Assembly (NCBI GenBank): GCA_002348365.1
Contig: DEBC01000137.1
Location: forward strand, 21,821 to 85,820
From: Alphaproteobacteria bacterium UBA2966
GTDB taxonomy: Bacteria; Pseudomonadota; Alphaproteobacteria; UBA2966
Length of the DNA: 64,000 nt
Direction of reading: 5' to 3'
In this document: positions 16,611-43,952 of the stretch, in pieces
Position numbering within the stretch: the stretch's first letter is position 1
Layout: every line of letters begins with the position of its first letter
Notes under the pieces: model-generated
Databases searched by the model: none
What the model was told of the DNA's origin: nothing
The model's input: only the letters and a program-made list of their open reading frames with translations
Made by a program: the position numbers and the translations under genes

Positions 16611-17113
16611 ACTGCTGGTACGCCGTTTACACCAAAATGCAGCTCGAGGTCTGGGCGAAGAACAACCTCGAGGAGCGCGGATTTGAAGTGTACCTCCCGC
16701 GTTATCTCAAGCAACGCCGGCATGCACGGCGTACCGAAATTGTTCCACATCCCCTGTTTTCGAGATACCTCTTCGTGAACGTCGATATCGACGCAGGACA
16801 CCGGCCACGTGTGAATACGGCGCCCGGCGTCGCATATCTTGTGAGTTTTGGTGACCGTCCGGCGGCCGTCGCGGATGCGATCATTGAAGAAATCAAAAGC
16901 CGCGAGAATGAGGATGGATACGTTCGGTTAGGCCGTGGTCAAAAATTCGCCAAAGGCGACCGGGTGAAAATCAGTGATGGCGCGCTTTGTGATCACGTCG
17001 GTCTCTTTCAAACCGGCACCGATAATGAGCGCGTTGTCATATTGCTCGATCTCCTGGGCCGTTTGACGCGGGTTAAAGTGCCGCTCGATTCGCTCGTTCC
17101 GGGCGATTTTTGA
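16607..17113 (+). CDS. NusG-family transcription antiterminator paralogue (RfaH/UpxY/LoaP-like), locus-specific.
   Basis: NGN domain (WYAVYTKMQLEVWAKNNLEERGFEVYLP) plus a C-terminal KOW-like region (…KGDRVKISDGALCDHVGLF…). The ATGA overlap with the regulator gene is at 16607-16610. Confidence 0.7.
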   Translation: MNCWYAVYTKMQLEVWAKNNLEERGFEVYLPRYLKQRRHARRTEIVPHPLFSRYLFVNVDIDAGHRPRVNTAPGVAYLVSFGDRPAAVADAIIEEIKSRENEDGYVRLGRGQKFAKGDRVKISDGALCDHVGLFQTGTDNERVVILLDLLGRLTRVKVPLDSLVPGDF

Positions 17114-20628: not shown

Positions 20629-20639
20629 ATTCGACCGTC

Positions 20640-24726: not shown

Positions 24727-24750
24727 TCGCGCTGGAAAAACAGGCCTGCC

Positions 24751-28292: not shown

Positions 28293-29687
28293 TTGAGTAC
28301 CCCAACATATGCCCAACGCATCAAGCGTAAGGTCGGCACCACTATCCTGGGTCCTATCCTGACCCGGCTGGCGGCGGAGGGCAGGGCGCCGCTCGTAGGC
28401 AAGCTCATCCGCAGCCAGCTTGTTACGCTGAAGCAGCCACAAGTCCACGAGTCGCAGGCGATTAGCACGCTCATTCTTCCCAAGCCTGGATTCTCTGAAG
28501 ATATCCAAGCCAGCCTCGGTCGCGACGGTCGCTTTCGCATCGTCTCACTCGATCGTACCTATACCAAGTTCGTCTATAGAGCGTTCCTCCCGAAAACGGT
28601 CGATGACAACAACTATCGCTCCGCTCCACCGGAAACCGCCGACAAGAAGCTCCAATTGCGAGATTTCTGGCAAGCCGCTTGGCCCCACGTCAGCCGTGGA
28701 CAGATTGATGTCCTGTTGACCGGGAATTTCAGTTATCACGCCGAACAGGAACTCACGGCGGCGCTTGAGGTGCATGGCACACCGGTCGTCGCGTTGCACA
28801 AGGAATGCCTGAAAAGCCCAGCGCTCGAGACGTTCTACGAACACGTCTACCGTGAACGGAAGATCCCATTCCAGGGCAGTTTCATCTCGACCTACAATGA
28901 GATCGAGCGTGACATTCAGGTTCGTGCCGGGACCGTTTCCCCCGACAGGGTGGTCGTGTCCGGCATGGCGCGTCTCGATAAAATACATCACTGGCGGGAG
29001 AAGTTTGGAGGTACGATCCGTCGAACCGGTGAGCGGCCTACCGTATTGTTCATGTCGTTCAATGCGCGCACCGGCGCCCCTTTGATTTCGCGGAAGCTTC
29101 CGGGACGGAGGGAGATTCTCGACGAGGCTCAGGAAGCGGTCGGTTGGGACAGGCTGGTCGTTGAATGTCATGCGGCGATGGTCGACCTCGCCCGGCAAGA
29201 GCCGGATATCGACGTTGTCATCAAAGCCAAGGATCACGCCCGGGCTTTGGCGGTGATCGAGGAAAGCTTTGGACATGATTTCAAGACACCTGCGAATCTG
29301 AAGATCATCTGCGGCGGCGATCCGTTCTCGCTCATAACGCAGGCAGACGTTCTTTGCGGATTTAACAGCACCAGCCTGTTCGAGGCATTGGCGGCCAACG
29401 TCCCGATCGTCTCACCGCATTTTGTGGAAGCGGCGGCGGAGGATACGAAGGGCTATGTCATTGACCTCGGCGACGCGGCAGAACGGGCGCACAGCCGACA
29501 GGAGTTGATTGCTCGCCTCGCCGCGCGCGCCCGATCCACGCACGCATCGGGCCATGCAACGACCCTGGCTGACGCACAACTTCGGGCGCTCGATCACTGG
29601 CTCGGCAATGCCGATGGAAAAGCGGGTGAGCGCGTTGCATCGCTTGTCAGCGAAATCGTCCGGTCTGAGCAGCGAGCGGCTGCCTGA
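28293..29687 (+). CDS. Putative GT-B-like glycosyltransferase, tandem paralogue 1 of 3.
   Basis: Colinear with paralogues 2 and 3 (…VLLTGNFSYHAEQELTAALEVHGTPVVALHKECLK… and …QADVLCGFNSTSLFEALAANVPIVSPHF…). The TTG start is at 28293. Confidence 0.55.
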   Translation: MSTPTYAQRIKRKVGTTILGPILTRLAAEGRAPLVGKLIRSQLVTLKQPQVHESQAISTLILPKPGFSEDIQASLGRDGRFRIVSLDRTYTKFVYRAFLPKTVDDNNYRSAPPETADKKLQLRDFWQAAWPHVSRGQIDVLLTGNFSYHAEQELTAALEVHGTPVVALHKECLKSPALETFYEHVYRERKIPFQGSFISTYNEIERDIQVRAGTVSPDRVVVSGMARLDKIHHWREKFGGTIRRTGERPTVLFMSFNARTGAPLISRKLPGRREILDEAQEAVGWDRLVVECHAAMVDLARQEPDIDVVIKAKDHARALAVIEESFGHDFKTPANLKIICGGDPFSLITQADVLCGFNSTSLFEALAANVPIVSPHFVEAAAEDTKGYVIDLGDAAERAHSRQELIARLAARARSTHASGHATTLADAQLRALDHWLGNADGKAGERVASLVSEIVRSEQRAAA

Positions 29688-29703
29688 TTCCCAGCACTCA
29701 CCC

Positions 29704-31098
29704 ATGAACGACAAGATCCGCCGCCACGTTTGGTGGTTCGCGTTTCGCACTGTCGCGCGTCTCAACTTGGCGCGTGCTGCTGCCTGGCTCATGGTTCGCG
29801 CCTTGGGGGGTGCTCAAACTGGATCTTCAGGTCAGGATGCAAAGAAGCTTCTGCTGTTGTCCAAACGAGGCCTGTTCGAGGATGCCGCGTCGGCTTTTGA
29901 AGGCGATCAGAGATTCGAGCCCTGGTATCTCGACATGGTCGAGATCAAACCTTTCAAGGCAATGGTCTCAGCCTTCCTGCCCCCCGAAATAGATGATTTC
30001 AACTATCTCTCAGATGACTCAGAAGTGGAGGCGGGCAAACGCGCGTACCGTGATTTCGCGGTTCAGGTGCTGAAGCACTTCCTCGCCCAAATGCCCTTTG
30101 ATGCAGTTCTGACAGCGAGCTTTTCCTACTATGCGGAACGAGAAGTGGCGGCTGCTTTCGAGCAATTGGGTGTGCCGTTCATCGCGTTACATAAGGAAAA
30201 CCTGAAAACCCCCGGCATCTTCAAATTCTACGAAGAGGTCTATCGCACGCGTCGCGGTCCGTTCCATGGCAGACGAATTCTCGTCTACAACGGAATTGAG
30301 AAGAATCTGCAGGTTGCGGCCGGCGTCGCGCCGGAAGGGAACATCACCGTGACCGGAATGCCCCGGCTCGACCGAATACATGAATGGCGTCAAGCGCAGG
30401 CCGGGCTGCGACCTGACACGAGTGGTCAAGCGACTACCGCTCATCAGGCGCTCTTCTTCGCGTTCGGACCGAAGACAGGGCTGCCACGCATGGCTCGCAA
30501 GCTCGGGTTCGGGATGCCGGAAGGCCTCGAGCAATTCGGTGACGAGCGGGATCAATTTTCCTGGGATGAGCTTGCCCGTTCGTATCACCGGGCAGCCGTC
30601 GAAGTCGCTCGACAAATGCCCGACATTCGAGTGATCGTGAAGGCCAAGCCGGTTCCCTTCGAAGTCGCAGCGATTCGAGAACTTCTTGGTGATGGCGATG
30701 ACCTTCCCGAGAACCTCACTCTGATCTCAAGTGGCGACCCGATGGAATTGATCCTTAAGAGCAATGTCGTATGCGGATTTCGGACGACCGCGCTCCTTGA
30801 GGTCATCGCGGCGGGTAAACCCCTCATCGTTCCTCATTTTGCCGAAGCCGCGACACCACAGCTGTCTGAATTCATTTTCGATGTTGAGTCGGCCGCAGAG
30901 TATGCCGACTCCGAAGAGGACATTGTCCGCAGAGTCTGCCATCACCTGACAAACAGCGAAGGGACAAGGGTCGCGCTTGAGTCGAGTGAGATGACCGTTC
31001 TCGAGAAGTGGACGGGAAATGTAGACGGCAAGTCGGGTGCGCGGGTGGCCAATGCGGTTCACGCAGAGATTTTGGGCGCACCGGTGGAGCACGACTGA
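29704..31098 (+). CDS. Putative GT-B-like glycosyltransferase, tandem paralogue 2 of 3.
   Basis: …AVLTASFSYYAEREVAAAFEQLGVPFIALHKENLK… and …KSNVVCGFRTTALLEVIAAGKPLIVPHF… The ATG at 29704 follows the paralogue-1 stop by 16 nt. Confidence 0.55.
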   Translation: MNDKIRRHVWWFAFRTVARLNLARAAAWLMVRALGGAQTGSSGQDAKKLLLLSKRGLFEDAASAFEGDQRFEPWYLDMVEIKPFKAMVSAFLPPEIDDFNYLSDDSEVEAGKRAYRDFAVQVLKHFLAQMPFDAVLTASFSYYAEREVAAAFEQLGVPFIALHKENLKTPGIFKFYEEVYRTRRGPFHGRRILVYNGIEKNLQVAAGVAPEGNITVTGMPRLDRIHEWRQAQAGLRPDTSGQATTAHQALFFAFGPKTGLPRMARKLGFGMPEGLEQFGDERDQFSWDELARSYHRAAVEVARQMPDIRVIVKAKPVPFEVAAIRELLGDGDDLPENLTLISSGDPMELILKSNVVCGFRTTALLEVIAAGKPLIVPHFAEAATPQLSEFIFDVESAAEYADSEEDIVRRVCHHLTNSEGTRVALESSEMTVLEKWTGNVDGKSGARVANAVHAEILGAPVEHD

Positions 31099-31102
31099 AC
31101 CT

Positions 31103-32467
31103 ATGTCATCACGACCGTGGCTTCTTCTCCCCATCGAAACCAAGCACCGGGAATTTTATGGCAAGATATTGTTGTCACTCGCCGCAGCCGAACGGGGTTT
31201 CGAAGTACTGCTCGGCGAACAGAACGCCATGCTTTCCCAACTCGATAACCTCCCCCAAGGCATATATCTCGACAAGAGCGTCGGCCGCACGAAGACCAAG
31301 TATTTCAAGAGACTTGATGCGCGAGGTTGCCGGATCGTGGCGTGGTGCGAAGAGGGCCTCGTCTATCGCGACCGCGACGCCTATCTGCACGAGCGTGTTT
31401 CCAACGCATCTCTGGCGCTAGCCAACAGGTTCTTCGCCTGGGGCGATGTGCAGGCCAATGATATTCACAAGCAAGCCCCAGAGGCGGATGCCAAGGTGCG
31501 GATCACCGGCAACCCACGCTTCGACATGTTGCGACCCGAATTCCGCAGTGTCTTCACGCCCGCGGCCGACAAGATTCGACAGTGCTACGGTCCATACATC
31601 CTCATCAATTCGAACTTCAGCCGGTACAACCACTTCATGGGCTACGACTTCTGGATCGAGGCCCTAAAACAGCGCGGCACGATCACGAACGATGAACAGC
31701 TCGCCTTCTACCATCGCTGGCGCGACTTCCTGGGAAAGGTCTTTCACGGCTTCATCCGTGTCATGCCGGCTCTCTCATCTGCATTCCCCGATCGGACGTT
31801 ACTGGTACGGCCACATCCGTCTGAAGATCACGCTACCTGGCTCCGCGAAACGGCTGCACTCAACAATGTCACCGTTGTGCATGAGGACAGCGCAATCCCC
31901 TGGATCGCAGGTGCCGATGCCGTCATACACAACAGCTGCACCACCGGTCTTGAGGCGTACCTTCTGGGTATTCCTGTTGCTGCATTCCGGCCTGCTGTCG
32001 ATGAGACATTTGATTCCCACCTCCCGAATGCGGTCAGTCACGAAGCGGTGGACGGCGAGGGCCTTATTGAAACCCTGCGCGAGCTCCTGGCGGGCACCGC
32101 GACCCCGCCGCCTTCCGCACAATCGGAGGTGAATAGATATGTAGCCGCGCTCGATGGCTCACTCGCGGGAGACCGTGTCGCGGATGCGTTGATCGAAATC
32201 TCTTTACGCTGTGAACCCCAGAAAATGGGACCGATACGACGCGCGAGAATTGCCCGGGAAAACACTGTCTCGGCGCTTAAGCCTATGCTCAGACGGATAC
32301 GCCGCAGCCATAAAGCGACGTCCTACGCGAAGCAAAAGTTTCCCGGAATTGAGCTCTCAGAGGTCGAACACGCCATAAACCAATTGAGAGACGTCTCGGG
32401 TCGCTTCGCCGGCATCACTTCGACGCGTTCACCGTTCCGTCACTGTTTTCGGATTTGCAAGACCTAA
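31103..32467 (+). CDS. Putative sialyltransferase-like glycosyltransferase, tandem paralogue 3 of 3.
   Basis: Contains …IVAWCEEGLVYRD… (D/E-D/E-G-type motif) and …LLVRPHPSEDH… (HP motif) ~160 aa apart. This matches the spacing of the two bacterial sialyltransferase motifs. The C-terminus …GADAVIHNSCTTGLEAYLLGIPV… parallels paralogues 1 and 2. Confidence 0.5.
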   Translation: MSSRPWLLLPIETKHREFYGKILLSLAAAERGFEVLLGEQNAMLSQLDNLPQGIYLDKSVGRTKTKYFKRLDARGCRIVAWCEEGLVYRDRDAYLHERVSNASLALANRFFAWGDVQANDIHKQAPEADAKVRITGNPRFDMLRPEFRSVFTPAADKIRQCYGPYILINSNFSRYNHFMGYDFWIEALKQRGTITNDEQLAFYHRWRDFLGKVFHGFIRVMPALSSAFPDRTLLVRPHPSEDHATWLRETAALNNVTVVHEDSAIPWIAGADAVIHNSCTTGLEAYLLGIPVAAFRPAVDETFDSHLPNAVSHEAVDGEGLIETLRELLAGTATPPPSAQSEVNRYVAALDGSLAGDRVADALIEISLRCEPQKMGPIRRARIARENTVSALKPMLRRIRRSHKATSYAKQKFPGIELSEVEHAINQLRDVSGRFAGITSTRSPFRHCFRICKT

Positions 32468-32486
32468 CTGGGAACAGGTACCCCAA

Positions 32487-33656
32487 TCAGCCTGCCTCTA
32501 CACCACCGCCCACCCATTTGATACGCGGCTCCATCGTGTCGAGATTCACGTTGTCCCGGTACCGTTCGACACGATCCATCATCGATCCCACGACCTCGCT
32601 GGTCAGAAGATGGGGTTGCAGCCCCAGGTCTGTCAGCTTGGAATGTTTGGCATTGTAGTAGTGCGACTCCTGCTCCACCCGCGGGTTCGCCACGTTCTCG
32701 ATTACGACATCCAGGCCACGCGTCCTGCCGGTCTCTTGCACGAGGTTGGCGAGATTGAGGATTGAATACTCCTCGGTGAACTGGTTGAAGACACGGAACT
32801 CTCCGGGCTTAGCCGGATTCCGCGCCGCCAACTCGACGCATTGAAGGGTATCGCGAATATTCAGAATTCCCCGGGTTTGACCGCCCTTCCCATACACGGA
32901 CAGCGGTTGCCCCATCACGGCCTGAACGACGAAACGGTTCAGCACTGTCCCGAACACATGGTCGTAGTGAAAGGATGTCGCCAACTCATCGTCGAGAAGC
33001 GTTTCCGTCGTGTCGATGCCGTAGACCACGCCCTGGTTCAGATCGGTCGCACGGACACCCCAGATTCGACAGGTAAACGCGATGTTGTTCGAATCATGAA
33101 CCTTTGACAGGTGATAAAAGCTGTGCGGCTTCTTCGGGTAGAGCACGGTGTCGGTCCGCCCGTTGTGGGTGACCGTCAGATAACCTTCCTCTATGTCGAT
33201 GTTAGGGGTGCCGTACTCACCCATGCTCCCGAGCTTGACCAGGTGGGCGTCCGGGCAATGACGTCGAAGCGCGAACAGAACGTTCAACGTGCCGGTCACA
33301 TTGCCCATTTGGGTCAGGACAGCTGTAGTCCGGCCCTGCATGGAATAGGGGGCCGAAGGCTGTTCGGCGTAATGGATGATGACTTCGGGCTGCGCGGCCT
33401 GAAACAGGTTGTAAACGAACCGGTGATTGGTCAGATCGCCGACGCGCAACTCAATGGTTTTACCCGTTAGTTCTTTCCATCGACGGACTCGGCGATGCAA
33501 CGTGGGCACGGGCGCGATCGGCTCGACACCTTCTTCCAGCTCCCACTGGCGCTTGGCGAAATTGTCCGCCACCCAAACTTCGTCCCCCGCAGAAGAGAAA
33601 TGCATGGCGGTGGGCCAACCGAGATAGCCGTCACCACCCAAGACCAATACGCGCAT
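32487..33656 (-). CDS. sqdB: UDP-sulfoquinovose synthase (SqdB/SQD1/Agl3 family).
   Basis: MRVLVLGGDGYLGWPTAMHFS… and …HYAEQPSAPYSM…, …HLVKLGSMGEYGTPNIDIEEGY…, …FYHLSKVHDSNNIAFTCRIWGVRATDLNQGVVYG…, …LNRFVVQAVMGQPLSVYGKGGQTRG…IRDTLQCVELA… These blocks match SQD1/SqdB closely. Confidence 0.8.
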   Translation of the reverse strand: MRVLVLGGDGYLGWPTAMHFSSAGDEVWVADNFAKRQWELEEGVEPIAPVPTLHRRVRRWKELTGKTIELRVGDLTNHRFVYNLFQAAQPEVIIHYAEQPSAPYSMQGRTTAVLTQMGNVTGTLNVLFALRRHCPDAHLVKLGSMGEYGTPNIDIEEGYLTVTHNGRTDTVLYPKKPHSFYHLSKVHDSNNIAFTCRIWGVRATDLNQGVVYGIDTTETLLDDELATSFHYDHVFGTVLNRFVVQAVMGQPLSVYGKGGQTRGILNIRDTLQCVELAARNPAKPGEFRVFNQFTEEYSILNLANLVQETGRTRGLDVVIENVANPRVEQESHYYNAKHSKLTDLGLQPHLLTSEVVGSMMDRVERYRDNVNLDTMEPRIKWVGGGVEAG

Positions 33657-33748
33657 GAGAATTCCGAGCTAGTAGTTTGCTGTCGTAGGTGACAGGAATG
33701 CCGTCTGCAACGGCGGCGGCGTCCTTGTCTCATGAATGGAGCCTGGCA

Positions 33749-34489
33749 TCAAGCAGACTGCTCGATGTGTGGAAGCGAGACAAAACCGGCCCGAAGCAAC
33801 AAGTCACCCAGCCTGAAATCGTCAGGACCGTCGCAATCGAATCCATAAACGGCGGGCACTTCGACGGCTATGGAGGGGTCAGCGAAAACCGCCCCGGATT
33901 GAAGAATACTCTCCGATCGAAAAACAACCAGATTTCCGAACAGGTGATGCTTTGGCTTTGACTGTTTGTTGTAAGCCTGGAGTCGCTCTTCCGCGAAACG
34001 CCAACTCACGTAACCATCCGAGACCAAGCGTTGATTGTAGGCATGATGATTATGCGGACAGTCGATGACCGTCTGCGCCGATCCCGCCGAGGGATCGGCC
34101 AGAAGCTCTTTCACGCAGGTATCGATCTGCTCCGGCAAGATGAATGGCGAAGTTGGCTGCAACAACGCGATACATTCGGGCACGCCTCCCGAATCGGTCC
34201 CGCTGGTACGAAGAAAGTCCACTATGACATCAGCAACCGCAACCGAGTCGCCCGAAAGCGCAGCCGGCCGGGCACTCACTTCAACCTGCAATTCGCGGCA
34301 TCGCGCTTCAATTGGCTGAGAATCCGTGCTGCAGATGATTCGCGCCACCGAGGCACTCTGTTGCGCTGCGAGAGCGCAGTAATCGAGAAGCGGCCGCCCG
34401 CCCAGATCTGCGATGTTCTTGAGCGGTACGCTTCTTGAGCCGCCGCGCGCGGGGATCAGTCCCCAGCACACTCCAGGCAGAACGTTCAT
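33749..34489 (-). CDS. Acylneuraminate (nonulosonic acid) cytidylyltransferase, CMP-sugar synthetase copy 2.
   Basis: …GLIPARGGSRSVPLKN… CTP_transf_3. The ATGA overlap with the upstream 2-HADH gene is at 34486-34489. Confidence 0.8.
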   Translation of the reverse strand: MNVLPGVCWGLIPARGGSRSVPLKNIADLGGRPLLDYCALAAQQSASVARIICSTDSQPIEARCRELQVEVSARPAALSGDSVAVADVIVDFLRTSGTDSGGVPECIALLQPTSPFILPEQIDTCVKELLADPSAGSAQTVIDCPHNHHAYNQRLVSDGYVSWRFAEERLQAYNKQSKPKHHLFGNLVVFRSESILQSGAVFADPSIAVEVPAVYGFDCDGPDDFRLGDLLLRAGFVSLPHIEQSA

Positions 34490-35466
34490 GTTTCACCACC
34501 GCCCTTGCCTGAAAAGTACTCGACCGCCATGTCAACGACCCGCCTCTGGGTATCTCGCCAAGCATCAACCGTCGACCCACCGATGTGCGGTGTGATCAAC
34601 AGGTTGGAATGCGATCGGGCGTAATCCACAAGAGGATGCGCCGAAGCTTGAAATCCGGGATCGTATTCTCCGTCCAGCACATCGGTGGCGGCACCCGCAA
34701 TGGCGTTGCTCTTGAGCGCGTTCAAAAGGGCACTTTCATCAACAATTTCGCCGCGTGCTGTGTTTATCAAAACCGCTGATTTCTTCATGTGACCCAGTGA
34801 CTCGCGGTCAATCAGATGATGAGTCGAGTCATTGGCGGGCACATGAATCGATACGACGTCCGATTGCGCCAAGAGGTCTTTGAGGTTGTCGACCCGAAGG
34901 TACTCTGGGGACGGCGCCTCGACGTTGGGGTCAAAGTAACAAACCTGCATGCCGAACGCGCGGCCGTAACTTGCCAGTTTCTTCCCGAGCCGCCCCAGTC
35001 CGACAATGCCCAGTGAAAGCCGAGACAGCATGGCCGGTGCGCCGAAGTCGAATCGATTCCACGACCCATCCAGCACTGCGCCGTAGCTCCATGGAGTCCG
35101 CCGCAGCAGCGCCAACATCAGACCGAATGCGTGCTCCGCCGTAGGTGTGATCGTGTCGAGGAACGCCTGCTCGTCCTTCAGCGAAAACACCCGAATGCCA
35201 CGAGACGCCGCAGCTTCCATATCGATGTGGGGAACGCCGGTCGTGTTGCTTATGATGGCGCGCAGGTGAGAACACCGGACCATTTTTTTGGCGTCGAACA
35301 GATAGCCAAGGGGCGCGAAGCAGGCATCTACCTGCGAGAGGATCTCATCCGAATCCTCTGCAGGCGTGGGCAGCGCAATGACTTCGAACTCTTTCTCCAG
35401 CAAGGCCAAGTTCTCGGGCTGGTAGGAAAGCAGGTCGTAGTAGAGAACGCGAGGCTTGTCCGGCAA
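34486..35466 (-). CDS. D-isomer-specific 2-hydroxyacid dehydrogenase family protein (third copy in the window).
   Basis: …LGIVGLGRLGKKLA…, …LINTARGEIVDE…, …ITPHIGGST… It sits between the neuC-like and CMP-transferase genes. Confidence 0.8.
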   Translation of the reverse strand: MPDKPRVLYYDLLSYQPENLALLEKEFEVIALPTPAEDSDEILSQVDACFAPLGYLFDAKKMVRCSHLRAIISNTTGVPHIDMEAAASRGIRVFSLKDEQAFLDTITPTAEHAFGLMLALLRRTPWSYGAVLDGSWNRFDFGAPAMLSRLSLGIVGLGRLGKKLASYGRAFGMQVCYFDPNVEAPSPEYLRVDNLKDLLAQSDVVSIHVPANDSTHHLIDRESLGHMKKSAVLINTARGEIVDESALLNALKSNAIAGAATDVLDGEYDPGFQASAHPLVDYARSHSNLLITPHIGGSTVDAWRDTQRRVVDMAVEYFSGKGGGET

Positions 35467-35467
35467 T

Positions 35468-36613
35468 TCAGTAGGTCATTTGCTTGTTGAGAAGATTCTG
35501 GTCCACAACAACCGTTGCCAGCACATCCGTTATGCGGCGGTATGCAGTGCCGTCCCCGAACGGGGGCTGGACGTCGCGAAGGCGTTGGCGGAACTCCTCG
35601 TCGGAGACACAACGTTCGATGGCCGTTCGTATGGCATCTCGATCGTAATCGACGTCCATAACGTTTGCCGCGCGTTCTCGGCCTTTCTGTCGCTCCCCGA
35701 TATTCACGGAGGGGAGCCCAAAGTAAGGCGCTTCTATCAGGGCTGCCGATGAGTTCCCCACAATACACGCCGCCAACTTTTCCAGGCCGATGAAGTCAGC
35801 CGCCGGAATGTTGCGATGTACTGAAAGACCGGGTGAGTCGGCGACTCGTTCGATCTCTGAAATGATGCCTTCGAAACCTTGATCAGAGCAGGGGTAAACC
35901 AGCATGGCGCGATGACCCGTGGCAACCACGGCGGCGACGGTTTCGGCCATCTGGTCAGCCGCTCTGTGAGACACAGTCGAATCCGAATGCTGGAGGACAA
36001 GCATGAACGGCGCTTCCTCACTCAGATCATACTTCGCGCGGAGTTCGTCCGCGGGCGTTATGTCGCCGAGAAACACCTGATCAATATGGGTATCGCCTAC
36101 GACATGCACACGCCATGGCTCCTCCCCCATCGCGACAATTCGATCTGCGGAGGCCTGCGTTGAAGGAAAATGAATATGGGCAAGCTTGGTGATCGCATGC
36201 CGAACGGGTTCGTCCAGGCTTCCGGAAATATCGCCGCCCTGCACGTGCGCGATTGCCACCCGCATGTTGTGCGCGGCAATACAGGCGGCAAACACTTCGC
36301 CTCTGTCTCCAATGACCAGAAGAATATCGGGCTGCAGGTCCCCGAGAACCTGAGCGGCTTTTGTCAGGCAGCGCCCTATCGCTCCCGCCCGGTCCCGATT
36401 GGAATCGCCTTCCTGTTCCATGTCGATTGTCGCCGACACCGGGAATCGGGCTTGAACTTCGGTCACCGTCTTACCGAACCGGTCATACAGGTGTTGATCG
36501 GTGACCACGAGTTGAAGCGACAAGTCTGGGCTTTGTTGGATGGCATCCATGGTAGGCGCCAAGGCGCCAAATCCCCCGCGCTTGCCGTTCCACACACAGA
36601 CACGACGCATCAC
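35468..36613 (-). CDS. neuC: UDP-N-acetylglucosamine 2-epimerase (hydrolysing), NeuC/LegG-type, copy 1.
   Basis: Epimerase_2 fold: …DLLLVIGDRGEVFAACIAAHNMRVAIAHVQGGD…VRHAITKLAHIHFPST…. Confidence 0.85.
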   Translation of the reverse strand: MMRRVCVWNGKRGGFGALAPTMDAIQQSPDLSLQLVVTDQHLYDRFGKTVTEVQARFPVSATIDMEQEGDSNRDRAGAIGRCLTKAAQVLGDLQPDILLVIGDRGEVFAACIAAHNMRVAIAHVQGGDISGSLDEPVRHAITKLAHIHFPSTQASADRIVAMGEEPWRVHVVGDTHIDQVFLGDITPADELRAKYDLSEEAPFMLVLQHSDSTVSHRAADQMAETVAAVVATGHRAMLVYPCSDQGFEGIISEIERVADSPGLSVHRNIPAADFIGLEKLAACIVGNSSAALIEAPYFGLPSVNIGERQKGRERAANVMDVDYDRDAIRTAIERCVSDEEFRQRLRDVQPPFGDGTAYRRITDVLATVVVDQNLLNKQMTY

Positions 36614-37641
36614 ACGAGGTCCTCGAACGACAAAGCTTCATCGGCGACGACATCTCTGGCCAGCGTCCGACCGATGAATTCGGGCAGACGGTTGGACAGA
36701 ACTCCAGTGCCGGGCCGCTTCGTCGCCAGATCTTCTCTGGAAATGATGAGCCCTTCGGCAAGGTCCCGTGACGCGACCACCGACTTCAAAGCCCATGCCT
36801 GAGCGTCCACTTCCGAGGGCGCGGGTTCCTTTCTGCCGTGTCCGAGCAACGTCTCGATCCGCCGGATGTCTCGAACGAGACCCGGAAAGTCGTCCGGACC
36901 TGCGGATACCCTCCAGTCCTGGGCATCTGGAATGTCACGCAGGATCGTAATGTGTTTCTCAACGATCGATGCGCCGCGCGCCACGGCAGACAAAATGGCC
37001 AGATGATCTTCGGTATGGTCGGAATATCCGACAGGTCCCGGAAAAATTGATTGGAGCGCATCCATGGCCGAGAGATTCACATCAGATTCAGGTGTCGGAT
37101 AACTCGTCACGCAGTGCAGCAGCGCGACTTCGTCCATTCCGGCGTTGGAGAGGGCATCGAGCGCTTCCGTTACATCGGATTCCCGGTACATGCCCGTCGA
37201 GACGATCATTGGCTTTCCGAGCTGGGCCAACTGGGAGAGAAACTCGGGATTGTTCCGTTCACCCGAACCCACTTTAACCGCCGGAACATCAAGCTCCCGC
37301 AACCAATCAATTCGCGAGGCATCATGCGCCGTCGCCATGAACAGAAGGCCCGCTGCATCGCAGCGTTCCTTCAGTTCCTGAAACTGGGGCAACGACAAGT
37401 TTCTCGGCCGGAGGCGGTCGCGCCAGTCGGGCGCCGACTCCGCGATGAGCTCATCCACGTCGAACACCTGTGTTTTAAAGATATCGGCACCCGCTTCCGC
37501 GGCGAGATCCACGAGTTGGCGGGCGAGATCCATATCGCCAAAGTGTGCAACGCCGGCCTCCGCAATCACGAAGACAGGCGCGTCCGCCCCGACTTCTCGA
37601 TCGCCGATTCGAAAGCGCGATTTGAATTTCGAGGCGGGCAT
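36610..37641 (-). CDS. neuB: N-acylneuraminate (nonulosonic acid) synthase, NeuB/LegI/PseI family, copy 1.
   Basis: …PVFVIAEAGVAHFGDMDLARQLVD…DIFKTQ… NeuB TIM barrel plus a C-terminal SAF/antifreeze-like domain (…ATKRPGTGVL…). The ATGA overlap with neuC is at 36610-36613. Confidence 0.85.
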   Translation of the reverse strand: MPASKFKSRFRIGDREVGADAPVFVIAEAGVAHFGDMDLARQLVDLAAEAGADIFKTQVFDVDELIAESAPDWRDRLRPRNLSLPQFQELKERCDAAGLLFMATAHDASRIDWLRELDVPAVKVGSGERNNPEFLSQLAQLGKPMIVSTGMYRESDVTEALDALSNAGMDEVALLHCVTSYPTPESDVNLSAMDALQSIFPGPVGYSDHTEDHLAILSAVARGASIVEKHITILRDIPDAQDWRVSAGPDDFPGLVRDIRRIETLLGHGRKEPAPSEVDAQAWALKSVVASRDLAEGLIISREDLATKRPGTGVLSNRLPEFIGRTLARDVVADEALSFEDLV

Positions 37642-37743
37642 TCGGCTAGAAACCTTGCAATTTGGTGCGCATCTGCACGTTCGGATGCAGGCCCTTCACG
37701 CCTTCGAGGGGTTCGAATTCTGACATGATTCAAGCCTAAACCC

Positions 37744-37798
37744 TTGACGAACCTTCGATTAACAGCATAGCGTTCACACGATGAACACGCTGGCGGTA
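37744..37798 (+). promoter_or_regulatory. Second copy of the TTGACG-N17-ATAGCGTTC…TGAACACGCT motif, plus a sigma70-like TTCACA-N18-TATGAT promoter facing the ABC exporter gene.
   Basis: TTGACG is at 37744-37749, ATAGCGTTC at 37767-37775 and TGAACACGCT at 37782-37791. TATGAT (37794-37799) lies 18 nt downstream of TTCACA (37770-37775). The motif sits in the divergent neuB1 / ABC-exporter intergenic region. Confidence 0.35.
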
Positions 37799-37945
37799 TG
37801 ATGCGTCACTTGGCCCAGGCTGTAAAGCGTCGATGAGTGGTGCGGCGGGTGGTCGAGAGCACCATCGAGTTTGCTCCCAGCGCCCGCGGTATCGCCTCCA
37901 TAGGACCTATGTACCGCACCCGGAACACCAAGAGAGAGAGAATTC

Positions 37946-39691
37946 TTGAACCGACGGTTCGAAACACTTGGAAAAATCCGCCACCTCATCGCTAGGCGCG
38001 AATGGATCATTCTCGGACTCTGTTGCCTGATGCTCCTTGCCTCAGTCGCTGAGAGCATGGGACTGGCTCTTGTTCTCCCGCTGATCTCCAGTCTCACCGG
38101 TGTATCCGAGGGTTCCGGCACGGTTGCTGAGATTAGTGTAAGACTGCGGGAACTGATCCCTGATGGGGTTGAGCTTGAAGGCCTGGTGTTATTGGTGGCC
38201 CTGGCGTTTCTGCTCAAAGGCGTTCTTCTGGTGATGTCTCGTGGCGCCGCCGACTATTTCTCCTTCCGTCTGCGTGAAGACTGGGCCGCAAAGATTTTTG
38301 ATCACTACCTGCGCGCCCGCTATGCCTACGCGACGTCGCAGCGGCAGGGCGAGATGGTGAACAACATCACGATCGAGCCTTATCGGGCCGCCCGGGCGAT
38401 CACCGTCCTTCTCGATTTCTTGAATCGGATAATTCTGGCGACCGTGCTGCTTACAGTCCTGCTCTTCACCAACTGGCAGGCGACACTGACTATTTCGCTG
38501 GTTGGCGCGCTTCTGTTCTTTGCCGTTCGCAAGTCCACATTCAACTACTCCCTTCACTTCGGCAAGCTGCGCCAGAAGCTCTACCAGCAAATTTCATCCA
38601 TAGGAGCCGAAGCCACCGGGGCGGCCCTTCAGGTGAAGCTGTTCGGAATCTACGACCAGGTGACGGGAGAATTGACCGCCAGGCTCAAACGACACACGCG
38701 TGCTGAGACACTCTTTCGAATTCTCAATGAGATCCCTCTCCAGTCGACCGAATTCCTCATCGTCCTTTTCCTGAGCGTTGCGCTGATCACCCTCAAACAG
38801 GTGGGCGACGTCGCACCGGAAAGCATTGCGGCAATGTTGGGCTTTTATGTTGTGCTCGGTCAGCGGCTTCTCACCAACGTCAATTTCATCATTTCGCGAC
38901 GGATGAAGATTGCCTCACAGATCCCGTCACTGATGCTGATGCATGAGCTGATTGAGAACATTCCCGACCGCGAAGACATCGAAACAGGTCAGGAACTCGC
39001 AACCCTTGACGACGACATTGTCTTCGAGAATGTGACCTTCAGCCATGAGAACGGCAAGCGCGTTTTCCGCGATCTCAACCTGCGTATACCCAAAGGGAAA
39101 ATCACCGGAATCGTTGGCCCATCCGGCACCGGCAAGTCAACGTTCGCCGACCTCATCCTGGGTCTATATGCTCCCGATCACGGGAGTGTCAGCGTCGGGG
39201 GTCATGTGCTCTCGACATATAATCTCCGATCGGTCCGCCAGCGAATTGGGTACGTGAGCCAAGCCCCCGAAATCTTCAATACTTCGATCCGAGAGAACAT
39301 ACGGATTGGCAATCCCAGCGCATCTGAGGATGAAGTGGTTGCAGCTGCCCGCGATGCCCATGCCTTCGATTTTGTTGCCGAACTGCCCGACGGTTTCGAT
39401 ACCGTTGTCGGAGATCGTGGCGTGAAGTTGTCGGGCGGACAGAGGCAGCGGATCGCGATCGCGCGGGTCATTCTGCGCGCACCCGATCTTTACATTTTCG
39501 ACGAGGCGACAAGCGCCCTCGACACTGAATCGGAACGCCTCATTCAAGACTCGATCCAACGTCTTGCGCACAACGCGACAATTGTCATCATCGCGCACCG
39601 CCTCTCCACGGTGCAATCAGCCGACGTGATTTACGAACTCGATGACACCGGAAAAGCGACAGCGCGCGAATTTTCCGAGATTGCTGTATAG
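37946..39691 (+). CDS. ABC transporter, fused permease/ATPase (MsbA/PglK/NdvA-like type I exporter).
   Basis: Six N-terminal TM helices, Walker A GPSGTGKST, the signature LSGGQRQRIAIAR and Walker B IFDEATSALD. The TTG start at 37946 has an AGAGAGAGA RBS. Confidence 0.85.
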   Translation: MNRRFETLGKIRHLIARREWIILGLCCLMLLASVAESMGLALVLPLISSLTGVSEGSGTVAEISVRLRELIPDGVELEGLVLLVALAFLLKGVLLVMSRGAADYFSFRLREDWAAKIFDHYLRARYAYATSQRQGEMVNNITIEPYRAARAITVLLDFLNRIILATVLLTVLLFTNWQATLTISLVGALLFFAVRKSTFNYSLHFGKLRQKLYQQISSIGAEATGAALQVKLFGIYDQVTGELTARLKRHTRAETLFRILNEIPLQSTEFLIVLFLSVALITLKQVGDVAPESIAAMLGFYVVLGQRLLTNVNFIISRRMKIASQIPSLMLMHELIENIPDREDIETGQELATLDDDIVFENVTFSHENGKRVFRDLNLRIPKGKITGIVGPSGTGKSTFADLILGLYAPDHGSVSVGGHVLSTYNLRSVRQRIGYVSQAPEIFNTSIRENIRIGNPSASEDEVVAAARDAHAFDFVAELPDGFDTVVGDRGVKLSGGQRQRIAIARVILRAPDLYIFDEATSALDTESERLIQDSIQRLAHNATIVIIAHRLSTVQSADVIYELDDTGKATAREFSEIAV

Positions 39692-39721: not shown

Positions 39722-40777
39722 ATGACACACCCCACCATTGAAATCGCAGGCAAGACCATCGGCATTGGCCAGCCGGCGTTCCTGATCGCCGAAGTCGCCC
39801 AAACTCATGACGGATCGCTTGGCCTCGCTCATGCGTTCATCGATGCAGCGGCTGATACCGGGGCAGATGCCATCAAGTTTCAGACCCACATCGCCGATGC
39901 CGAATCCACGCTCGATGAAGAGTTCCGGGTTGCATTCAGCAAACAGGACAAGACGCGGTACGACTACTGGAAGCGCATGGAATTTACGCCTGAGCAGTGG
40001 TCGGGTCTGGCCGAACATGCCAGCGCGCGAGGCGTGGTGTTTCTCAGTTCGGCCTTTTCGGTGGCAGCCATCAATCTTCTGGAAGCGATTGGCATCCCGG
40101 CGTGGAAGGTAGGTTCCGGAGAATTCAGGTCGGACGACCTTCTGGCACGCCTGTGCGAGACCGGATTTCCGGTCATTTTCTCTACGGGGATGAGCACGTG
40201 GCAGGAAATTGAAACCGCTGTCGCAGCGTTTCAGGAGCAGAAGTCGCCGCTTGCGCTCCTTCAGTGCACGAGCCGTTACCCAACGCCTCTTGAGGAAGTC
40301 GGGCTGAATGTCATCGACGACCTTCGAAACCGCTTTGACGTCCCAGCCGGACTGTCGGATCACTCAGGGAGTATTTATCCATCGCTTGCCGCACTCGCGC
40401 GCGGTGCCAATCTCATCGAGGTCCACCTGACACTCGACAGGCGATTGTTTGGTCCCGATGTCCCGGTATCGCTGACACCTGACGAGATGCGAACGGTGTG
40501 CGAGGCGCGTGACGCCTTTGCGGTCATGGACGCCAATCCTGTCGACAAGGAGACCATGGCCAAGAACCTCAGCACCATGCGTGATCTCTTCACCAAGAGC
40601 CTGGCGGTGACGCGTCCTCTCGCAGCGGGTACCAGGCTGACACCAGATATGTTGACCTCGAAAAAGCCCGGCACCGGCATACCCGCTGGGGATCTGGGGG
40701 GCTTTGTGGGTCGAACCCTCGCGCGTGACGTATCACCTGACCGTTTGCTTTCTCTCGAGGATATTGATGGCGGATAA
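39722..40777 (+). CDS. neuB: N-acylneuraminate (nonulosonic acid) synthase, NeuB/LegI/PseI family, copy 2.
   Basis: …PAFLIAEVAQTHDGSLGLAHAFIDAAADTGADAIKFQTH… and a C-terminal SAF domain (…SKKPGTGIP…). Confidence 0.85.
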   Translation: MTHPTIEIAGKTIGIGQPAFLIAEVAQTHDGSLGLAHAFIDAAADTGADAIKFQTHIADAESTLDEEFRVAFSKQDKTRYDYWKRMEFTPEQWSGLAEHASARGVVFLSSAFSVAAINLLEAIGIPAWKVGSGEFRSDDLLARLCETGFPVIFSTGMSTWQEIETAVAAFQEQKSPLALLQCTSRYPTPLEEVGLNVIDDLRNRFDVPAGLSDHSGSIYPSLAALARGANLIEVHLTLDRRLFGPDVPVSLTPDEMRTVCEARDAFAVMDANPVDKETMAKNLSTMRDLFTKSLAVTRPLAAGTRLTPDMLTSKKPGTGIPAGDLGGFVGRTLARDVSPDRLLSLEDIDGG

Positions 40778-42002
40778 ACGCAAGATTTGCATCGTGGTGA
40801 ACAGCCGGGCCAATTACGCCCGAATCAAATCCGTCATGCGCGCCATCGAAGAGCACGAGGCTTTGGACCTCAAGCTTATCGTCGGTGCTTCGGCGCTGCT
40901 CCACCGGTTTGGCGCGGTTCGCGACATCATCGAAGCTGATGGCTTTACTCCGGTATCGACCGTTTACTCCATCGTCGAAGGTGAAACACCAACGACAATG
41001 GCAAAGTCGACAGGTATGGGCATCATCGAGCTCGCGACTCAATTCGAAAACATTCAGCCCGATATCGTCCTGACTGTCGCCGACAGGTTCGAGACGATCG
41101 CGACCGCCATCGCCGCCAGCTATATGAATATTCCCGTTGCGCACACACAAGGCGGGGAAGTCACAGGTTCCATCGACGAAAGCGTGCGCCATGCCGTAAC
41201 CAAGCTCGCGCATATTCATTTTCCTGCGACGGGTCGGGCTCGGGACAACGTCGTGCGTATGGGTGAGGACCCGGAAATGGTGTTTCTCACCGGATGTCCA
41301 TCAATCGACCTTATTGCGGATCTCGATCTACGAATGCCGCCCGATATGTTTGAGCGGTATCGCGGTGTCGGCGCACAAATTGACCCGTCGCAGCCTTACC
41401 TGGTCGTCCTCCAGCATCCCGTGACAACAGAGTACGGCTCAGGGTTAGATCAGATCTGGGAGACGCTGACCGCGGTCGAAAAAGTTGGTTTGCAGGCCGC
41501 ATGGCTATGGCCAAACGTGGATGCAGGGTCCGACGACATTTCAAAGGGACTGCGTGTTTACCGGGAGCGCAACAATCCCGACTGGCTCCACTTTTATCGT
41601 CACTTTGGCGCGGAGGATTACGCGCGCCTGATAAACAACGCGGCCTGCCTGGTCGGCAACTCAAGCTCTGGGCTGAGGGAGGGCGCATACCTCGGTGTTC
41701 CCGCAGTCAATATCGGGACCCGCCAACAAGGTCGGGAACATGGGGAGAACGTCATCCACGTCGACTATGACGCGGCGCAGATTGAAGCGACGGTCAACCA
41801 GCAAATATCTCACGGCCGGCACCAGAGCGCGCATTTATTCGGTGATGGAAATGCGGGCAGGAAAATTGCAGACGTTCTCGCCTCTGTCGAACCCAACGTT
41901 CAAAAGCGACTCACGTATGACCAGTCGCATGACCAGGGAATCCAACAGCTGGCAGAACGCGCGCGCCTGAGACGACATCTCACCGGGAACGGCACTCGAT
42001 GA
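40767..42002 (+). CDS. neuC: UDP-N-acetylglucosamine 2-epimerase (hydrolysing), NeuC-type, copy 2, with a C-terminal extension.
   Basis: …DIVLTVADRFETIATAIAASYMNIPVAHTQGGE…VRHAVTKLAHIHFPAT… The ATG at 40767 overlaps the neuB2 3' end by 11 nt. Confidence 0.8.
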   Translation: MADKRKICIVVNSRANYARIKSVMRAIEEHEALDLKLIVGASALLHRFGAVRDIIEADGFTPVSTVYSIVEGETPTTMAKSTGMGIIELATQFENIQPDIVLTVADRFETIATAIAASYMNIPVAHTQGGEVTGSIDESVRHAVTKLAHIHFPATGRARDNVVRMGEDPEMVFLTGCPSIDLIADLDLRMPPDMFERYRGVGAQIDPSQPYLVVLQHPVTTEYGSGLDQIWETLTAVEKVGLQAAWLWPNVDAGSDDISKGLRVYRERNNPDWLHFYRHFGAEDYARLINNAACLVGNSSSGLREGAYLGVPAVNIGTRQQGREHGENVIHVDYDAAQIEATVNQQISHGRHQSAHLFGDGNAGRKIADVLASVEPNVQKRLTYDQSHDQGIQQLAERARLRRHLTGNGTR

Positions 42003-43003
42003 CTTCGGTTAACAAGCACATCCTCGTCGTTGGAAGCGGCAGCGCTGGCAAGCGGCATGCTCGCAACCTCGCGTCCCGGGGCTGCACCATCTCGAGCATG
42101 GATCCGCGTCAGGACCGCCTCGCGGAGCTGGCCGAAGAGACTCCGGTGGAGCGGGGGTTCGACTCCATCGAAGCGGCTCTCGAAAACTCGGAGCGTCTAG
42201 ACGGCGTGGTCATCACATCGCCCCCCTTCTTTCACGTGGATCAAGCAATTGCGGCGATCGAGGCGAGGTTGCCGGTCCTGCTGGAGAAACCGGTCTCGCC
42301 CGATGCGACAAGCGCCCGCAAGCTAGCCCGGACTTGCGAGTCCCATGAGGTGGCACTCCTGCTGGGATACACTTGGCGCTGGTGGCCGCCCCTTCGAGAC
42401 GTCAAAACCAAGCTCGAATCGGGCGCTGTCGGGCGCCTGCGGCATGTTCGCTTCACCATGTCCGCACATCTAGCCGACTGGCATCCCTGGGAGCGCTATC
42501 AAGACTTCTTCATGTCCAGTCGAGAATTGGGTGGTGGCGCAATCCTCGACGAAAGCCATTGGATCGATCTGGCACTGTGGTTCTTCGGCATGCCGCGTTC
42601 CGTCTCGGCCCGAATCGAGAAGATCAGTGATCTCGAGATCGATGCGGACGACAATGTCGACATGATCCTGGAGTTCGATGACGGCCTGCGTGCCACCTTG
42701 CACCTCGATCTCTTCGGCAGACCTCACGAAAAGAGCATCCGATTCGTTGGCGAAGAGGGCAGTTGCTTGTGGACGGAATCACCCAATCGCGTCGCGTTTT
42801 CCGGCAGTGCCTCCGAGGACTGGGACGAGACCACATACACCTGCGAACGGAATGACATGTTTATGGGTGTGACCGAGGAATTCCTCGATGTGCTCGATGG
42901 GCAGAGCGTCACCACCTGCTCCATCGAGGATGGCGTCCGCGTACTCGACGTGATCGAGGCCGCCCGGCGCAGTCACGAAGAAGAGCGCCGCATCCCGCTA
43001 TAG
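41999..43003 (+). CDS. Gfo/Idh/MocA-family NAD(P)-dependent oxidoreductase.
   Basis: N-terminal Rossmann (…ILVVGSGSAGKRHARNL…) and a GFO_IDH_MocA C-domain. The ATGA overlap with neuC2 is at 41999-42002. Confidence 0.8.
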   Translation: MTSVNKHILVVGSGSAGKRHARNLASRGCTISSMDPRQDRLAELAEETPVERGFDSIEAALENSERLDGVVITSPPFFHVDQAIAAIEARLPVLLEKPVSPDATSARKLARTCESHEVALLLGYTWRWWPPLRDVKTKLESGAVGRLRHVRFTMSAHLADWHPWERYQDFFMSSRELGGGAILDESHWIDLALWFFGMPRSVSARIEKISDLEIDADDNVDMILEFDDGLRATLHLDLFGRPHEKSIRFVGEEGSCLWTESPNRVAFSGSASEDWDETTYTCERNDMFMGVTEEFLDVLDGQSVTTCSIEDGVRVLDVIEAARRSHEEERRIPL

Positions 43004-43819: not shown

Positions 43820-43952
43820 CAGGTGCCCGGCACTCTTATGAGGTAACGATCTTGTCGTCTAGGAACGGATCGCAAGCATACTCCCCCAGCGACGGGTGTC
43901 ACGGTTCCAACTCACGTCGTCGCGCGGTATAGCGGTACGGACACGGCGGCGT

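Follow-up and report, generated by a model that had tools for sequence, protein, structure and literature searches.

The carbon–sulfur bond made by SQD1 is known from the sulfolipid sulfoquinovosyldiacylglycerol (SQDG) and from a few archaeal N-glycans. The present analysis concerns a homologue of this enzyme, SqdB, whose gene closes a five-gene operon, neuB1-neuC-2HADH-neuA-sqdB, that otherwise encodes enzymes of nonulosonic acid (NulO) type (NeuB1, NeuC and NeuA) and a D-2-hydroxyacid dehydrogenase family protein (2HADH). The operon lies in a 64,000-nucleotide stretch of DNA, hereafter the window (contig C161, positions 21821-85820), of the genome of Alphaproteobacteria bacterium UBA2966 (4.08 Mb in 172 contigs, 97.7% complete). 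Judged from gene content, conservation and sequence features, the five genes may form a mobile cassette for one activated, C-sulfonated nonulosonic acid (a 9-deoxy-9-sulfo sugar) destined for a surface glycan, a reading that we regard as having an even chance of being right.

In the legionaminic and pseudaminic acid pathways, a dehydratase of the short-chain dehydrogenase/reductase (SDR) type acts on UDP-N-acetylglucosamine (UDP-GlcNAc) and is followed by NeuC-, NeuB- and NeuA-like enzymes, the intermediates being 6-deoxy sugars. The window operon shares with these pathways (LegB/PseB or Pen, LegG, LegI and LegF) the placing first of an SDR, which in those pathways modifies C6 (and C4) of a UDP-HexNAc, and the NeuC-NeuB-NeuA logic. 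Unlike in those systems, which yield 9-deoxy NulOs, the SDR of the cassette is of the SQD1 type, and C9 of the product would carry a sulfonate instead of hydrogen. Family scans detect neither a C4 aminotransferase nor an N-acetyltransferase in the window cassette or in the minimal cassettes described below. Mechanistically, SqdB belongs to the class of sugar-nucleotide dehydratases, as does the first SDR of legionaminic and pseudaminic acid synthesis (PMC8987622).

With the SQDG pathway of plants, cyanobacteria, Rhodobacter and Sinorhizobium the window enzyme has in common its family, its fold, the [ST]MG...YHxxK motif and an identity of about 60% to SQD1. In contrast to that pathway, no sqdX/SQD2 or sqdD adjoins the gene, no glycosyltransferase of family 8 (GT8) is encoded in the genome, the gene stands in a NulO operon, and a proline replaces the arginine known as R101. 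Agl3 of Sulfolobus acidocaldarius is likewise a UDP-sulfoquinovose synthase, and its product enters a surface N-glycan and not a lipid (PMC4388408). Its gene, however, clusters with those for a glucokinase, a nucleotidyltransferase and a glycosyltransferase (agl1, agl2 and agl4), and sulfoquinovose is transferred as such, whereas the partners here are NeuC, NeuB and NeuA. A 2026 review of sulfoquinovose cycling treats SqdB as an enzyme of SQDG synthesis only (PMC13436972). The search of the full-text literature returned nothing on sqdB within NulO clusters, on nonulosonic acids bearing a sulfonate, on sulfoquinovosamine-type sugars or on sulfoquinovose in bacterial polysaccharides; for the last of these, an earlier first-pass annotation of the window had already stated that, to its author's knowledge, no description existed.

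Conservation of the SqdB-NulO linkage

Genes were called from a listing of open reading frames (ORFs) combined with family scans (Pfam and NCBIfam/TIGRFAM profiles), and 80 loci from species-representative genomes were compared. In the closest relative (L004), SqdB is 88% identical and the locus is fully syntenic. Two gammaproteobacterial metagenome-assembled genomes (MAGs; L006 and L007) encode a 74% identical SqdB and keep the order NeuB-NeuC-2HADH-NeuA-SqdB with other flanks. Every fetched SqdB of at least 63% identity (L004-L016, L121-L122 and L127-L130) sits with NeuC, NeuA or NeuB. Among the more distant SqdBs, from Chloroflexota, Acidobacteriota and Actinomycetota, none is NulO-linked, with the exception of a Candidatus Falkowbacteria locus (L039). 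In the phylogenetic tree, the 12 proteobacterial NulO-linked SqdBs form one clade (SH-aLRT 99), beside which the Falkowbacteria copy is found. Further loci, in a Nitrospiraceae MAG and on two long ENA contigs, show either NeuB1 directly followed by SqdB or the order ABC-NeuB1-NeuC-NeuA-SqdB-unknown-sulfotransferase-deacetylase (ABC, ATP-binding cassette exporter). The linkage spans classes and phyla, namely Alpha- and Gammaproteobacteria, Nitrospirota and the candidate phyla radiation.

A census of about 36,000 genera, with a neighbourhood of 6 kb and with proteins banded by per cent of the best score (20-39, 40-59 and 60+), detected SqdB in 2406 genera and NeuB-family proteins in 9150. Starting from SqdB, a NeuB lies within 6 kb in 0/99, 6/123 and 6/75 carriers in the three bands, respectively. 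Starting from NeuB1-like synthases, SqdB lies within the same distance in 18 of 30 genera (40-59% band) and in 6 of 12 (60+%), that is, in 24 of the 42 tried, against fewer than 3 of 75 and fewer than 3 of 180 for distant NeuBs and fewer than 3 for random places. The banded counts therefore indicate that NeuB1 represents a rare NeuB clade tied to SqdB, and the SqdB-NulO association is far beyond chance. Within a 401-genome sample of the class, NeuB1 is present in 4 genomes, all 4 of which carry SqdB, and two genomes of the same family contain neither. In metagenomes, the NeuB1 clade comprises at least 120 protein clusters at 63% identity or more, and for at least 15 of them the longest contig is equal in length to that of top SqdB matches.

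The cassette NeuCs fall into two lineages that correspond to two SqdB subclades, which points to long co-inheritance. Two cassettes are split. One genome (G581) holds NeuC-SqdB at L010 and NeuB1-2HADH-NeuA at L124, and another (G188) holds NeuC-SqdB at L127 and NeuB1-2HADH-NeuA at L128, the two contigs being 214 and 90 kb long; a 7.3-Mb genome (L008) shows the same NeuC-SqdB arrangement as L010. The two splits look independent, because the NeuCs of G581 and G188 belong to different lineages. In both, NeuC stays with SqdB, and this is unlike the behaviour of a mere supplier of N-acetylmannosamine (ManNAc), which should stay with NeuB. Such a division would be expected if SqdB and NeuC carried out the first two steps of a pathway and the other genes the later ones. 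In L008, a GmhA-like sugar-phosphate isomerase gene (11191-11769) follows SqdB, a KpsF-like gene is found nearby, and a membrane-bound O-acyltransferase (MBOAT) gene stands immediately upstream of NeuC-SqdB. In L012 (7714-9912) and L015 (7028-9169), the NulO genes and SqdB are separated by a gene for a B12-binding radical SAM protein (about 720 amino acids), which suggests an extra modification of the product, possibly C-methylation.

The cassette enzymes and the proposed pathway

NeuB1 scores 308 bits on TIGR03569 (N-acetylneuraminate synthase), below the cut-off of 399.65, with both PF03102 and SAF present. Thirteen active-site residues have been listed for the NeuB of Neisseria meningitidis (PMC6795526), and NeuB1 retains E25, Q55, T110, K129, Y186, S213, H215, E234 and R314 of that enzyme, which there serve catalysis and the binding of the metal, of phosphoenolpyruvate (PEP) and of the N-acetyl carbonyl. 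Asn74 of the N. meningitidis enzyme contacts the C6-OH of ManNAc (PMC11339185); the loop at this position is 13 residues shorter in NeuB1 and arginine-rich (W[RK][DE]RLRxRNL). In addition, F112 is replaced by His, and GSGE is followed by Arg. Six positions are occupied by Arg or Lys in 9/9 clade members and are basic in at most 20% of a comparison set of 30 NeuBs scoring above the TIGR03569 cut-off, and a Glu common in this set (HCTTEYP) is Ser, Ala or Cys in the NeuB1 clade. According to published work, the altered positions line the sugar at its distal end, and their replacement would render the pocket more positive. Changes of this kind would fit an anionic substituent at C6 of the substrate. 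NeuB2, encoded in the second NulO module of the window, does not carry the loop replacement.

Compared with the NeuCBA pathway to N-acetylneuraminic acid (Neu5Ac) in N. meningitidis and E. coli K1, the operon is alike in that NeuC passes TIGR03568 (356.5 bits, cut-off 235.9) and in the metal, PEP and Arg314 residues of NeuB1. It differs in the NeuB1 features just given, namely the score below the TIGR03569 cut-off, the missing Asn74 loop, His for Phe112 and the six clade-specific basic residues. The animal-type Neu5Ac-9-phosphate synthase is also a member of the NeuB family and takes a substrate with an anionic C6 group, ManNAc-6-phosphate. In contrast to that system, the cassette contains neither a ManNAc kinase nor a phosphatase, and NeuB1 keeps the bacterial Arg314, which is lacking in the mammalian enzyme (PMC11339185). 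Automatic annotation names one member of the NeuB1 clade 'N-acylneuraminate-9-phosphate synthase'.

Against Arabidopsis SQD1 (PDB 1qrr), the window SqdB gives 520 bits (E 2.5e-155), with residues 2-387 aligned on 3-388 at about 60% identity; since it aligns end to end with SQD1, it is no ordinary GalE. The signature of the SQD1/Agl3 family, [ST]MG...Yx3K (PMC8987622), is present as S144-M145-G146 and Y181-H182-x2-K185 (T145, Y182, H183 and K186 in SQD1). On NF041015, the equivalog model for UDP-sulfoquinovose synthase, the protein scores 440 bits, under the cut-off of 575. This model appears to be narrow, because it finds matches in 12 of 14 control genomes and exceeds its cut-off in 1 of 14. 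By these sequence features, the window gene is a genuine SQD1/SqdB-type enzyme. The first-pass annotation had called it a clear SqdB homologue and had named, among the findings that would refute its reading, an ordinary UDP-glucose 4-epimerase without the SQD1-specific residues; the full-length match and the SQD1 motifs sustain the former and speak against the latter. Ser144, at the position of the catalytic Thr145 of SQD1, is unique to the window SqdB, with Thr in the other 12 NulO-linked and in all 71 other SqdBs; the T144A mutant of Agl3 is fully active (PMC4388408).

Alanine mutants of H95, R101, M145, Y182 and K186 inactivate Agl3 (PMC4388408). The window SqdB keeps four of these five residues, with P100 in place of R101. 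Proline occupies this position in 13/13 NulO-linked SqdBs and also in 22 of 71 SqdBs without NulO linkage, so that P100 is not clade-defining and is evidently tolerated; on the same count it was ruled out as a marker of altered specificity. The positions specific to the NulO clade are 25, 77, 108, 111, 243 and 355 in window numbering.

A role in sulfite addition is supported indirectly by the neighbours of sqdB in relatives. In the Falkowbacteria locus, from a 0.9-Mb genome, a single co-directional run encodes a BFO_1060-like glycosyltransferase, NeuC, a methyltransferase, NeuA, a CysH-like protein, CysD, CysN, SqdB and NeuB. The three cys genes directly adjoin sqdB, and their place within the run suggests that sulfite supply is built into the NulO operon. 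In L008, the genes adjoining sqdB encode a CysN/APS-kinase fusion (APS, adenosine 5'-phosphosulfate) and a PAPS_reduct-domain protein. These neighbours also bear on a sulfur-free role, in which the SqdB homologue would act as a Pen/TunA-like 5,6-dehydratase and give, on the way to a 9-deoxy NulO, a 6-deoxy-5,6-ene or a 6-deoxy intermediate. Such a role could be read from the loss of the R101 equivalent and from the formation of UDP-glucose-5,6-ene by Agl3 without sulfite (PMC4388408). It is, however, difficult to reconcile with the cys genes of both loci, with the full set of SQD1-specific motifs (MG replacing the acid/base pair of the dehydratases, and the YH pair), with the occurrence of P100 outside the NulO-linked enzymes and with the arginine-rich NeuB1 pocket, which argues for an anionic group. 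We therefore consider it improbable.

Regarding the remaining enzymes, NeuA matches PF02348 with 75.7 bits; among NCBIfam models PseF fits it best, with 83 bits, which is below the cut-off. 2HADH matches PF02826 with 172.6 bits. It is present in L004, L006, L009, L011, L015, L016, L124, L128 and L130 and absent from L013, L014, L121, L122 and L039, and in the split cassettes it travels with NeuB1 and NeuA. 2HADH is thus an accessory component. Functions as a C2-keto reductase or as a supplier of an acyl side chain were both rejected, since neither fits the chemistry and CMP activation together.

From the gene identities and order, the co-inheritance, the splits and the NeuB1 differences observed, we infer the substrates, products and step order of a pathway as follows. 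SqdB would add sulfite to C6 of a UDP-hexose by the SQD1 mechanism (4-oxidation, 5,6-dehydration, sulfite addition and 4-reduction), acting on UDP-GlcNAc if the chemistry of NeuC is conventional and otherwise on UDP-glucose. NeuC would then remove UDP and invert C2, releasing free 6-deoxy-6-sulfo-ManNAc (or 6-sulfo-mannose), and NeuB1 would condense this sulfo sugar with PEP to a 9-deoxy-9-sulfo nonulosonic acid. Where present, 2HADH may modify the nonulosonic acid in an unspecified way, and NeuA would convert the acid to the CMP-sugar. Finally, a BFO_1060/TIGR04396-like transferase would add the sugar to the glycan, with the ABC transporter sharing in export or flipping. The retained Arg314 equivalent, together with NeuC chemistry (elimination to a 2-acetamidoglycal), favours an N-acetylated substrate, and the SqdB of this clade would then have to accept UDP-GlcNAc.

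The window genome appears to be of marine origin in the sense that the 90%-identity cluster mates of its housekeeping proteins come from Tara and other marine metagenomes, and the DNA of the region is also found in marine metagenomes from 11 studies. There is about an equal chance, either way, that a mobile cassette for a surface-displayed 9-deoxy-9-sulfo analogue of Neu5Ac or of ketodeoxynonulosonic acid (KDN), with synthesis beginning by SQD1-type addition of sulfite to a UDP-hexose, is common to bacteria of the marine Alpha- and Gammaproteobacteria, of Nitrospirota and of the candidate phyla radiation. With such a sugar, the sialic-acid family would gain a member and the natural nonulosonic acids a new class. 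It would also give organosulfur derived from sulfite a new sink in the ocean, and it would point to an unrecognised pool of organosulfur on the surfaces of marine heterotrophs. The sugar would be permanently anionic; its C-S bond, unlike a sulfate ester, should resist sulfatases, and it might be a poor substrate for known sialidases. Furthermore, a function would be given to a widespread 'orphan' NeuB clade, and enzymes would become available for making sulfo-sialic-acid analogues.

Transferases and the destination of the SqdB product

The only transferase family recurring beside the cassette is the NulO-transferase-like BFO_1060/TIGR04396 family, whose name goes back to a putative legionaminic-acid transferase. 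In L004, L006, L012-L016 and L039, SqdB has a homologue or distant relative beside it, and in L130 one lies about 2.2 kb away. The window gene next to sqdB and that of L006 match the family strongly, those of L013-L016 and L039 weakly. Two further BFO_1060-like paralogues co-occur with the cassette in L004, L006, L009 and L011. The minimal cassettes (L013, L121 and L122) consist of NulO genes and SqdB; one gene occupies the BFO_1060 position in L013, where it is weakly BFO_1060-like, and in L122, where it encodes 463 amino acids and has no Pfam hit on record. The L121 sequence ends within the gene that follows the cassette. Across the compared loci, no UDP-sugar transferase accompanies the cassette in a conserved manner. 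An ABC exporter adjoins NeuB1 in L014, L015, L016, L121, L122 and L129.

These observations bear on the possibility, less probable in our judgement and still to be taken seriously, that SqdB makes UDP-sulfoquinovose that is transferred as its own residue onto a glycan also bearing an ordinary NulO from NeuC, NeuB1 and NeuA, the linkage reflecting a shared repeat unit. The motifs of SqdB and its identity to SQD1 suit the canonical UDP-glucose reaction, NeuC scores as an ordinary UDP-GlcNAc 2-epimerase, and the SqdBs of sister lineages adjoin glycosyltransferases or a flippase. A transferase for such a residue might be the family 4 glycosyltransferase (GT4) of the window cluster, of which relatives occur in L006 and, beside NeuB1-2HADH-NeuA, in L128. 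Archaeal Agl3 offers a precedent for sulfoquinovose entering glycans (PMC4388408). Nevertheless, this explanation does not account for the linkage of SqdB to one rare NeuB clade with an arginine-rich pocket, for the retention of NeuC with SqdB and not with NeuB and NeuA in two independent splits, or for the recurrence of the BFO_1060-like transferase, and no UDP-sugar transferase is kept with the cassette, the minimal forms holding only NulO genes and SqdB apart from the gene in the BFO_1060 position. Collectively, the splits, the NeuB pocket and the missing conserved UDP-sugar transferase point more to an SqdB product that serves as the first intermediate of the NulO pathway than to sulfoquinovose transferred as such.

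Several points weigh against a sulfonated nonulosonic acid. No clade-specific change in SqdB could be placed at C2 of the sugar, its core motifs are identical to those of UDP-glucose-using enzymes, and P100 replaces an arginine whose change to alanine inactivates Agl3. Among the cassette NeuCs, no gain of basic residues was convincing. To our knowledge, no enzyme of the NeuC family acts on a 2-hydroxy sugar, so that the scheme requires either an SqdB that accepts UDP-GlcNAc or new NeuC chemistry. No role is assigned to 2HADH, and the donor specificity of the BFO_1060-like members is putative. A GT4 recurs in three of the larger clusters (window, L006 and L128). A conserved glycan holding sulfoquinovose and an ordinary NulO could also give rise to the co-inheritance.

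As a destination of UDP-sulfoquinovose, SQDG or another sulfoglycolipid made by a transferase encoded elsewhere, with the place of sqdB after neuA being incidental, is very improbable. In its favour, UDP-sulfoquinovose ends up in SQDG in the textbook pathway, phosphate limitation leads marine bacteria to replace their phospholipids, and the 12 GT4-domain hits of the genome, none of them adjacent to sqdB, may include an SqdX/SQD2-type member. In contrast, the NulO linkage is kept across classes and phyla, and SqdB and NeuB1 are missing together from two genomes of the same family. Moreover, the 97.7%-complete genome contains no GT8 (sqdD-type, PF01501) and no GT21, and the window SqdB and the lipid-type SqdB of Sinorhizobium meliloti share only about 38% identity. 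The S. meliloti protein lies on a very long branch, and its gene is directly followed by an sqdD-type transferase gene. The missing transferases and the low identity both make SQDG an unlikely destination. A GT4 gene beside SqdB in L060 was considered as a proxy for SqdX and dropped, being without relatives at other SqdB loci.

The genome-wide search for sqdD proposed in the first-pass annotation gave no GT8, as stated above. Its remark that no sulfolipid glycosyltransferase is visible nearby holds for the genes adjacent to sqdB, where the BFO_1060-like gene is the only transferase; in the same cluster, a GT4 lies 12 kb off. The view that SqdB normally sits with sqdD/SQD2 proved too narrow. 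Among the relatives fetched, SqdB is found beside a ceramide-glucosyltransferase-like GT21 at 27 loci, almost all from Acidobacteriota (e.g., L036), beside a GT2 with DUF2304 in Actinomycetota (L025 and related), and beside a GalE-like epimerase and a Wzx-like flippase in Chloroflexota (L020). These partners in non-phototrophs suggest several undescribed sulfoquinovose glycoconjugates. As to the proposal that UDP-sulfoquinovose feeds a glycan and not SQDG, the glycan destination is in keeping with the glycan cluster, the conserved NulO linkage and the absence of GT8 and GT21 from the genome, and the evidence now favours an SqdB product that is a NulO intermediate over the transfer of sulfoquinovose.

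Operon layout and the surrounding glycan cluster

The coordinates of the operon and of its neighbours are collected in Table 1.

Table 1. Features of the operon and its surroundings in the window
Feature	Position	Strand	Basis or remark
Two BFO_1060-like paralogues	28293-29687, 29509-31098 (span 28293-31098)	+	Weak NF046086/TIGR04396; true starts probably downstream
TIGR04396/BFO_1060-like putative NulO transferase	31037-32467	+	TIGR04396, 389 bits vs cut-off 125; convergent with sqdB
SqdB/SQD1-type sulfite-adding SDR (predicted), 389 aa	32487-33656	-	Full-length SQD1 similarity
Intergenic gap upstream of sqdB, 92 nt	33657-33748	-	
NeuA-type CMP-ulosonic-acid synthetase (CTP_transf_3), 246 aa	33749-34489	-	PF02348
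D-2-hydroxyacid dehydrogenase family protein (2HADH), 326 aa	34486-35466	-	PF02826/PF00389
NeuC (NeuC1)-type hydrolysing UDP-HexNAc 2-epimerase, 381 aa	35468-36613	-	TIGR03568
NeuB1, divergent nonulosonic acid synthase, 343 aa	36610-37641	-	PF03102 + SAF
Divergent intergenic region upstream of neuB1	37642-37945		Sigma-70-like sites
Fused TMD-NBD (transmembrane and nucleotide-binding domain) ABC exporter	37946-39691	+	PF00664 + PF00005; divergent from neuB1
Second NulO module: NeuB2, NeuC2, GFO/IDH/MocA oxidoreductase	39722-43003	+	
GT4 in glycan cluster, ~12 kb from sqdB	45649-46833		

The five genes form a co-directional run closed by sqdB, and the convergent plus-strand gene stops at 32467. 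Going from neuB1 to sqdB, neighbouring genes overlap by 4 nt, are separated by 1 nt, overlap again by 4 nt and finally stand 92 nt apart. Both the terminal position of sqdB after neuB-neuC-2HADH-neuA and the 92-nt gap ahead of it, as described in the first-pass annotation, are reproduced by the ORFs and the family scans. The gap contains no promoter-like or terminator-like site and has no Rfam match. It is weakly conserved, with a mean column identity of 53% over 7 syntenic loci, and in relatives it measures 85-112 nt or is absent. A regulatory RNA or conserved element in the gap was rejected on these results. One metagenome (X6) carries a gap variant (33674-33724) with about 20 substitutions and four short deletions; since the flanking coding sequence is near-identical, the gap appears to evolve fast.

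Sigma-70-like sites near the operon occur only in the divergent region upstream of neuB1, at 37826-37798 (minus strand) and 37773-37802 (plus strand), and are weak evidence because shuffled sequences give a mean of 2.3 by chance. The sequence of the gap is compatible with a single transcript for the five genes, without demonstrating one. In a marine metatranscriptome (X18), contigs cover sqdB (32420-33645) and part of neuB1 (37027-37325), possibly through DNA carry-over, and none of them spans the gap or any gene junction.

The operon lies within a glycan cluster that spans about 39 kb (roughly 14476-53148). Its other genes encode a UDP-sugar dehydrogenase, a pair of regulators of helix-turn-helix (HTH) and NusG-like type, several methyltransferases, two sulfotransferases, a polysaccharide deacetylase and an MBOAT, as well as a second cytidylyltransferase, a Wzy-like protein, a WbpL/WecA-like initiating transferase and a PglF/WbpM-like dehydratase. 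The HTH and NusG-like pair (15927-17113), possibly acting in antitermination, opens the plus-strand part of the cluster, and a heparinase II/III-like protein is encoded just outside it (12753-14447). At 18002-23124, a second 2-hydroxyacid dehydrogenase gene overlaps that of a thiamine pyrophosphate (TPP)-dependent enzyme (19006-20628), followed by the MBOAT acyltransferase and by a family-less protein of 328 amino acids.

A sulfotransferase gene directly followed by a polysaccharide deacetylase gene recurs with the cassette, in the window (23857-25752 and 43896-44786), in L004 and in L122 (14528-16314). This pair resembles the logic of N-deacetylase/N-sulfotransferase, and the glycan may thus also be N- or O-sulfated. 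A third NeuB-family synthase is encoded on another contig (G000:C114:2368-3309) and scores 312 bits on TIGR03569. Together with the three BFO_1060-like genes of the window, this third NeuB raises the possibility of up to three different nonulosonic acids in the organism.

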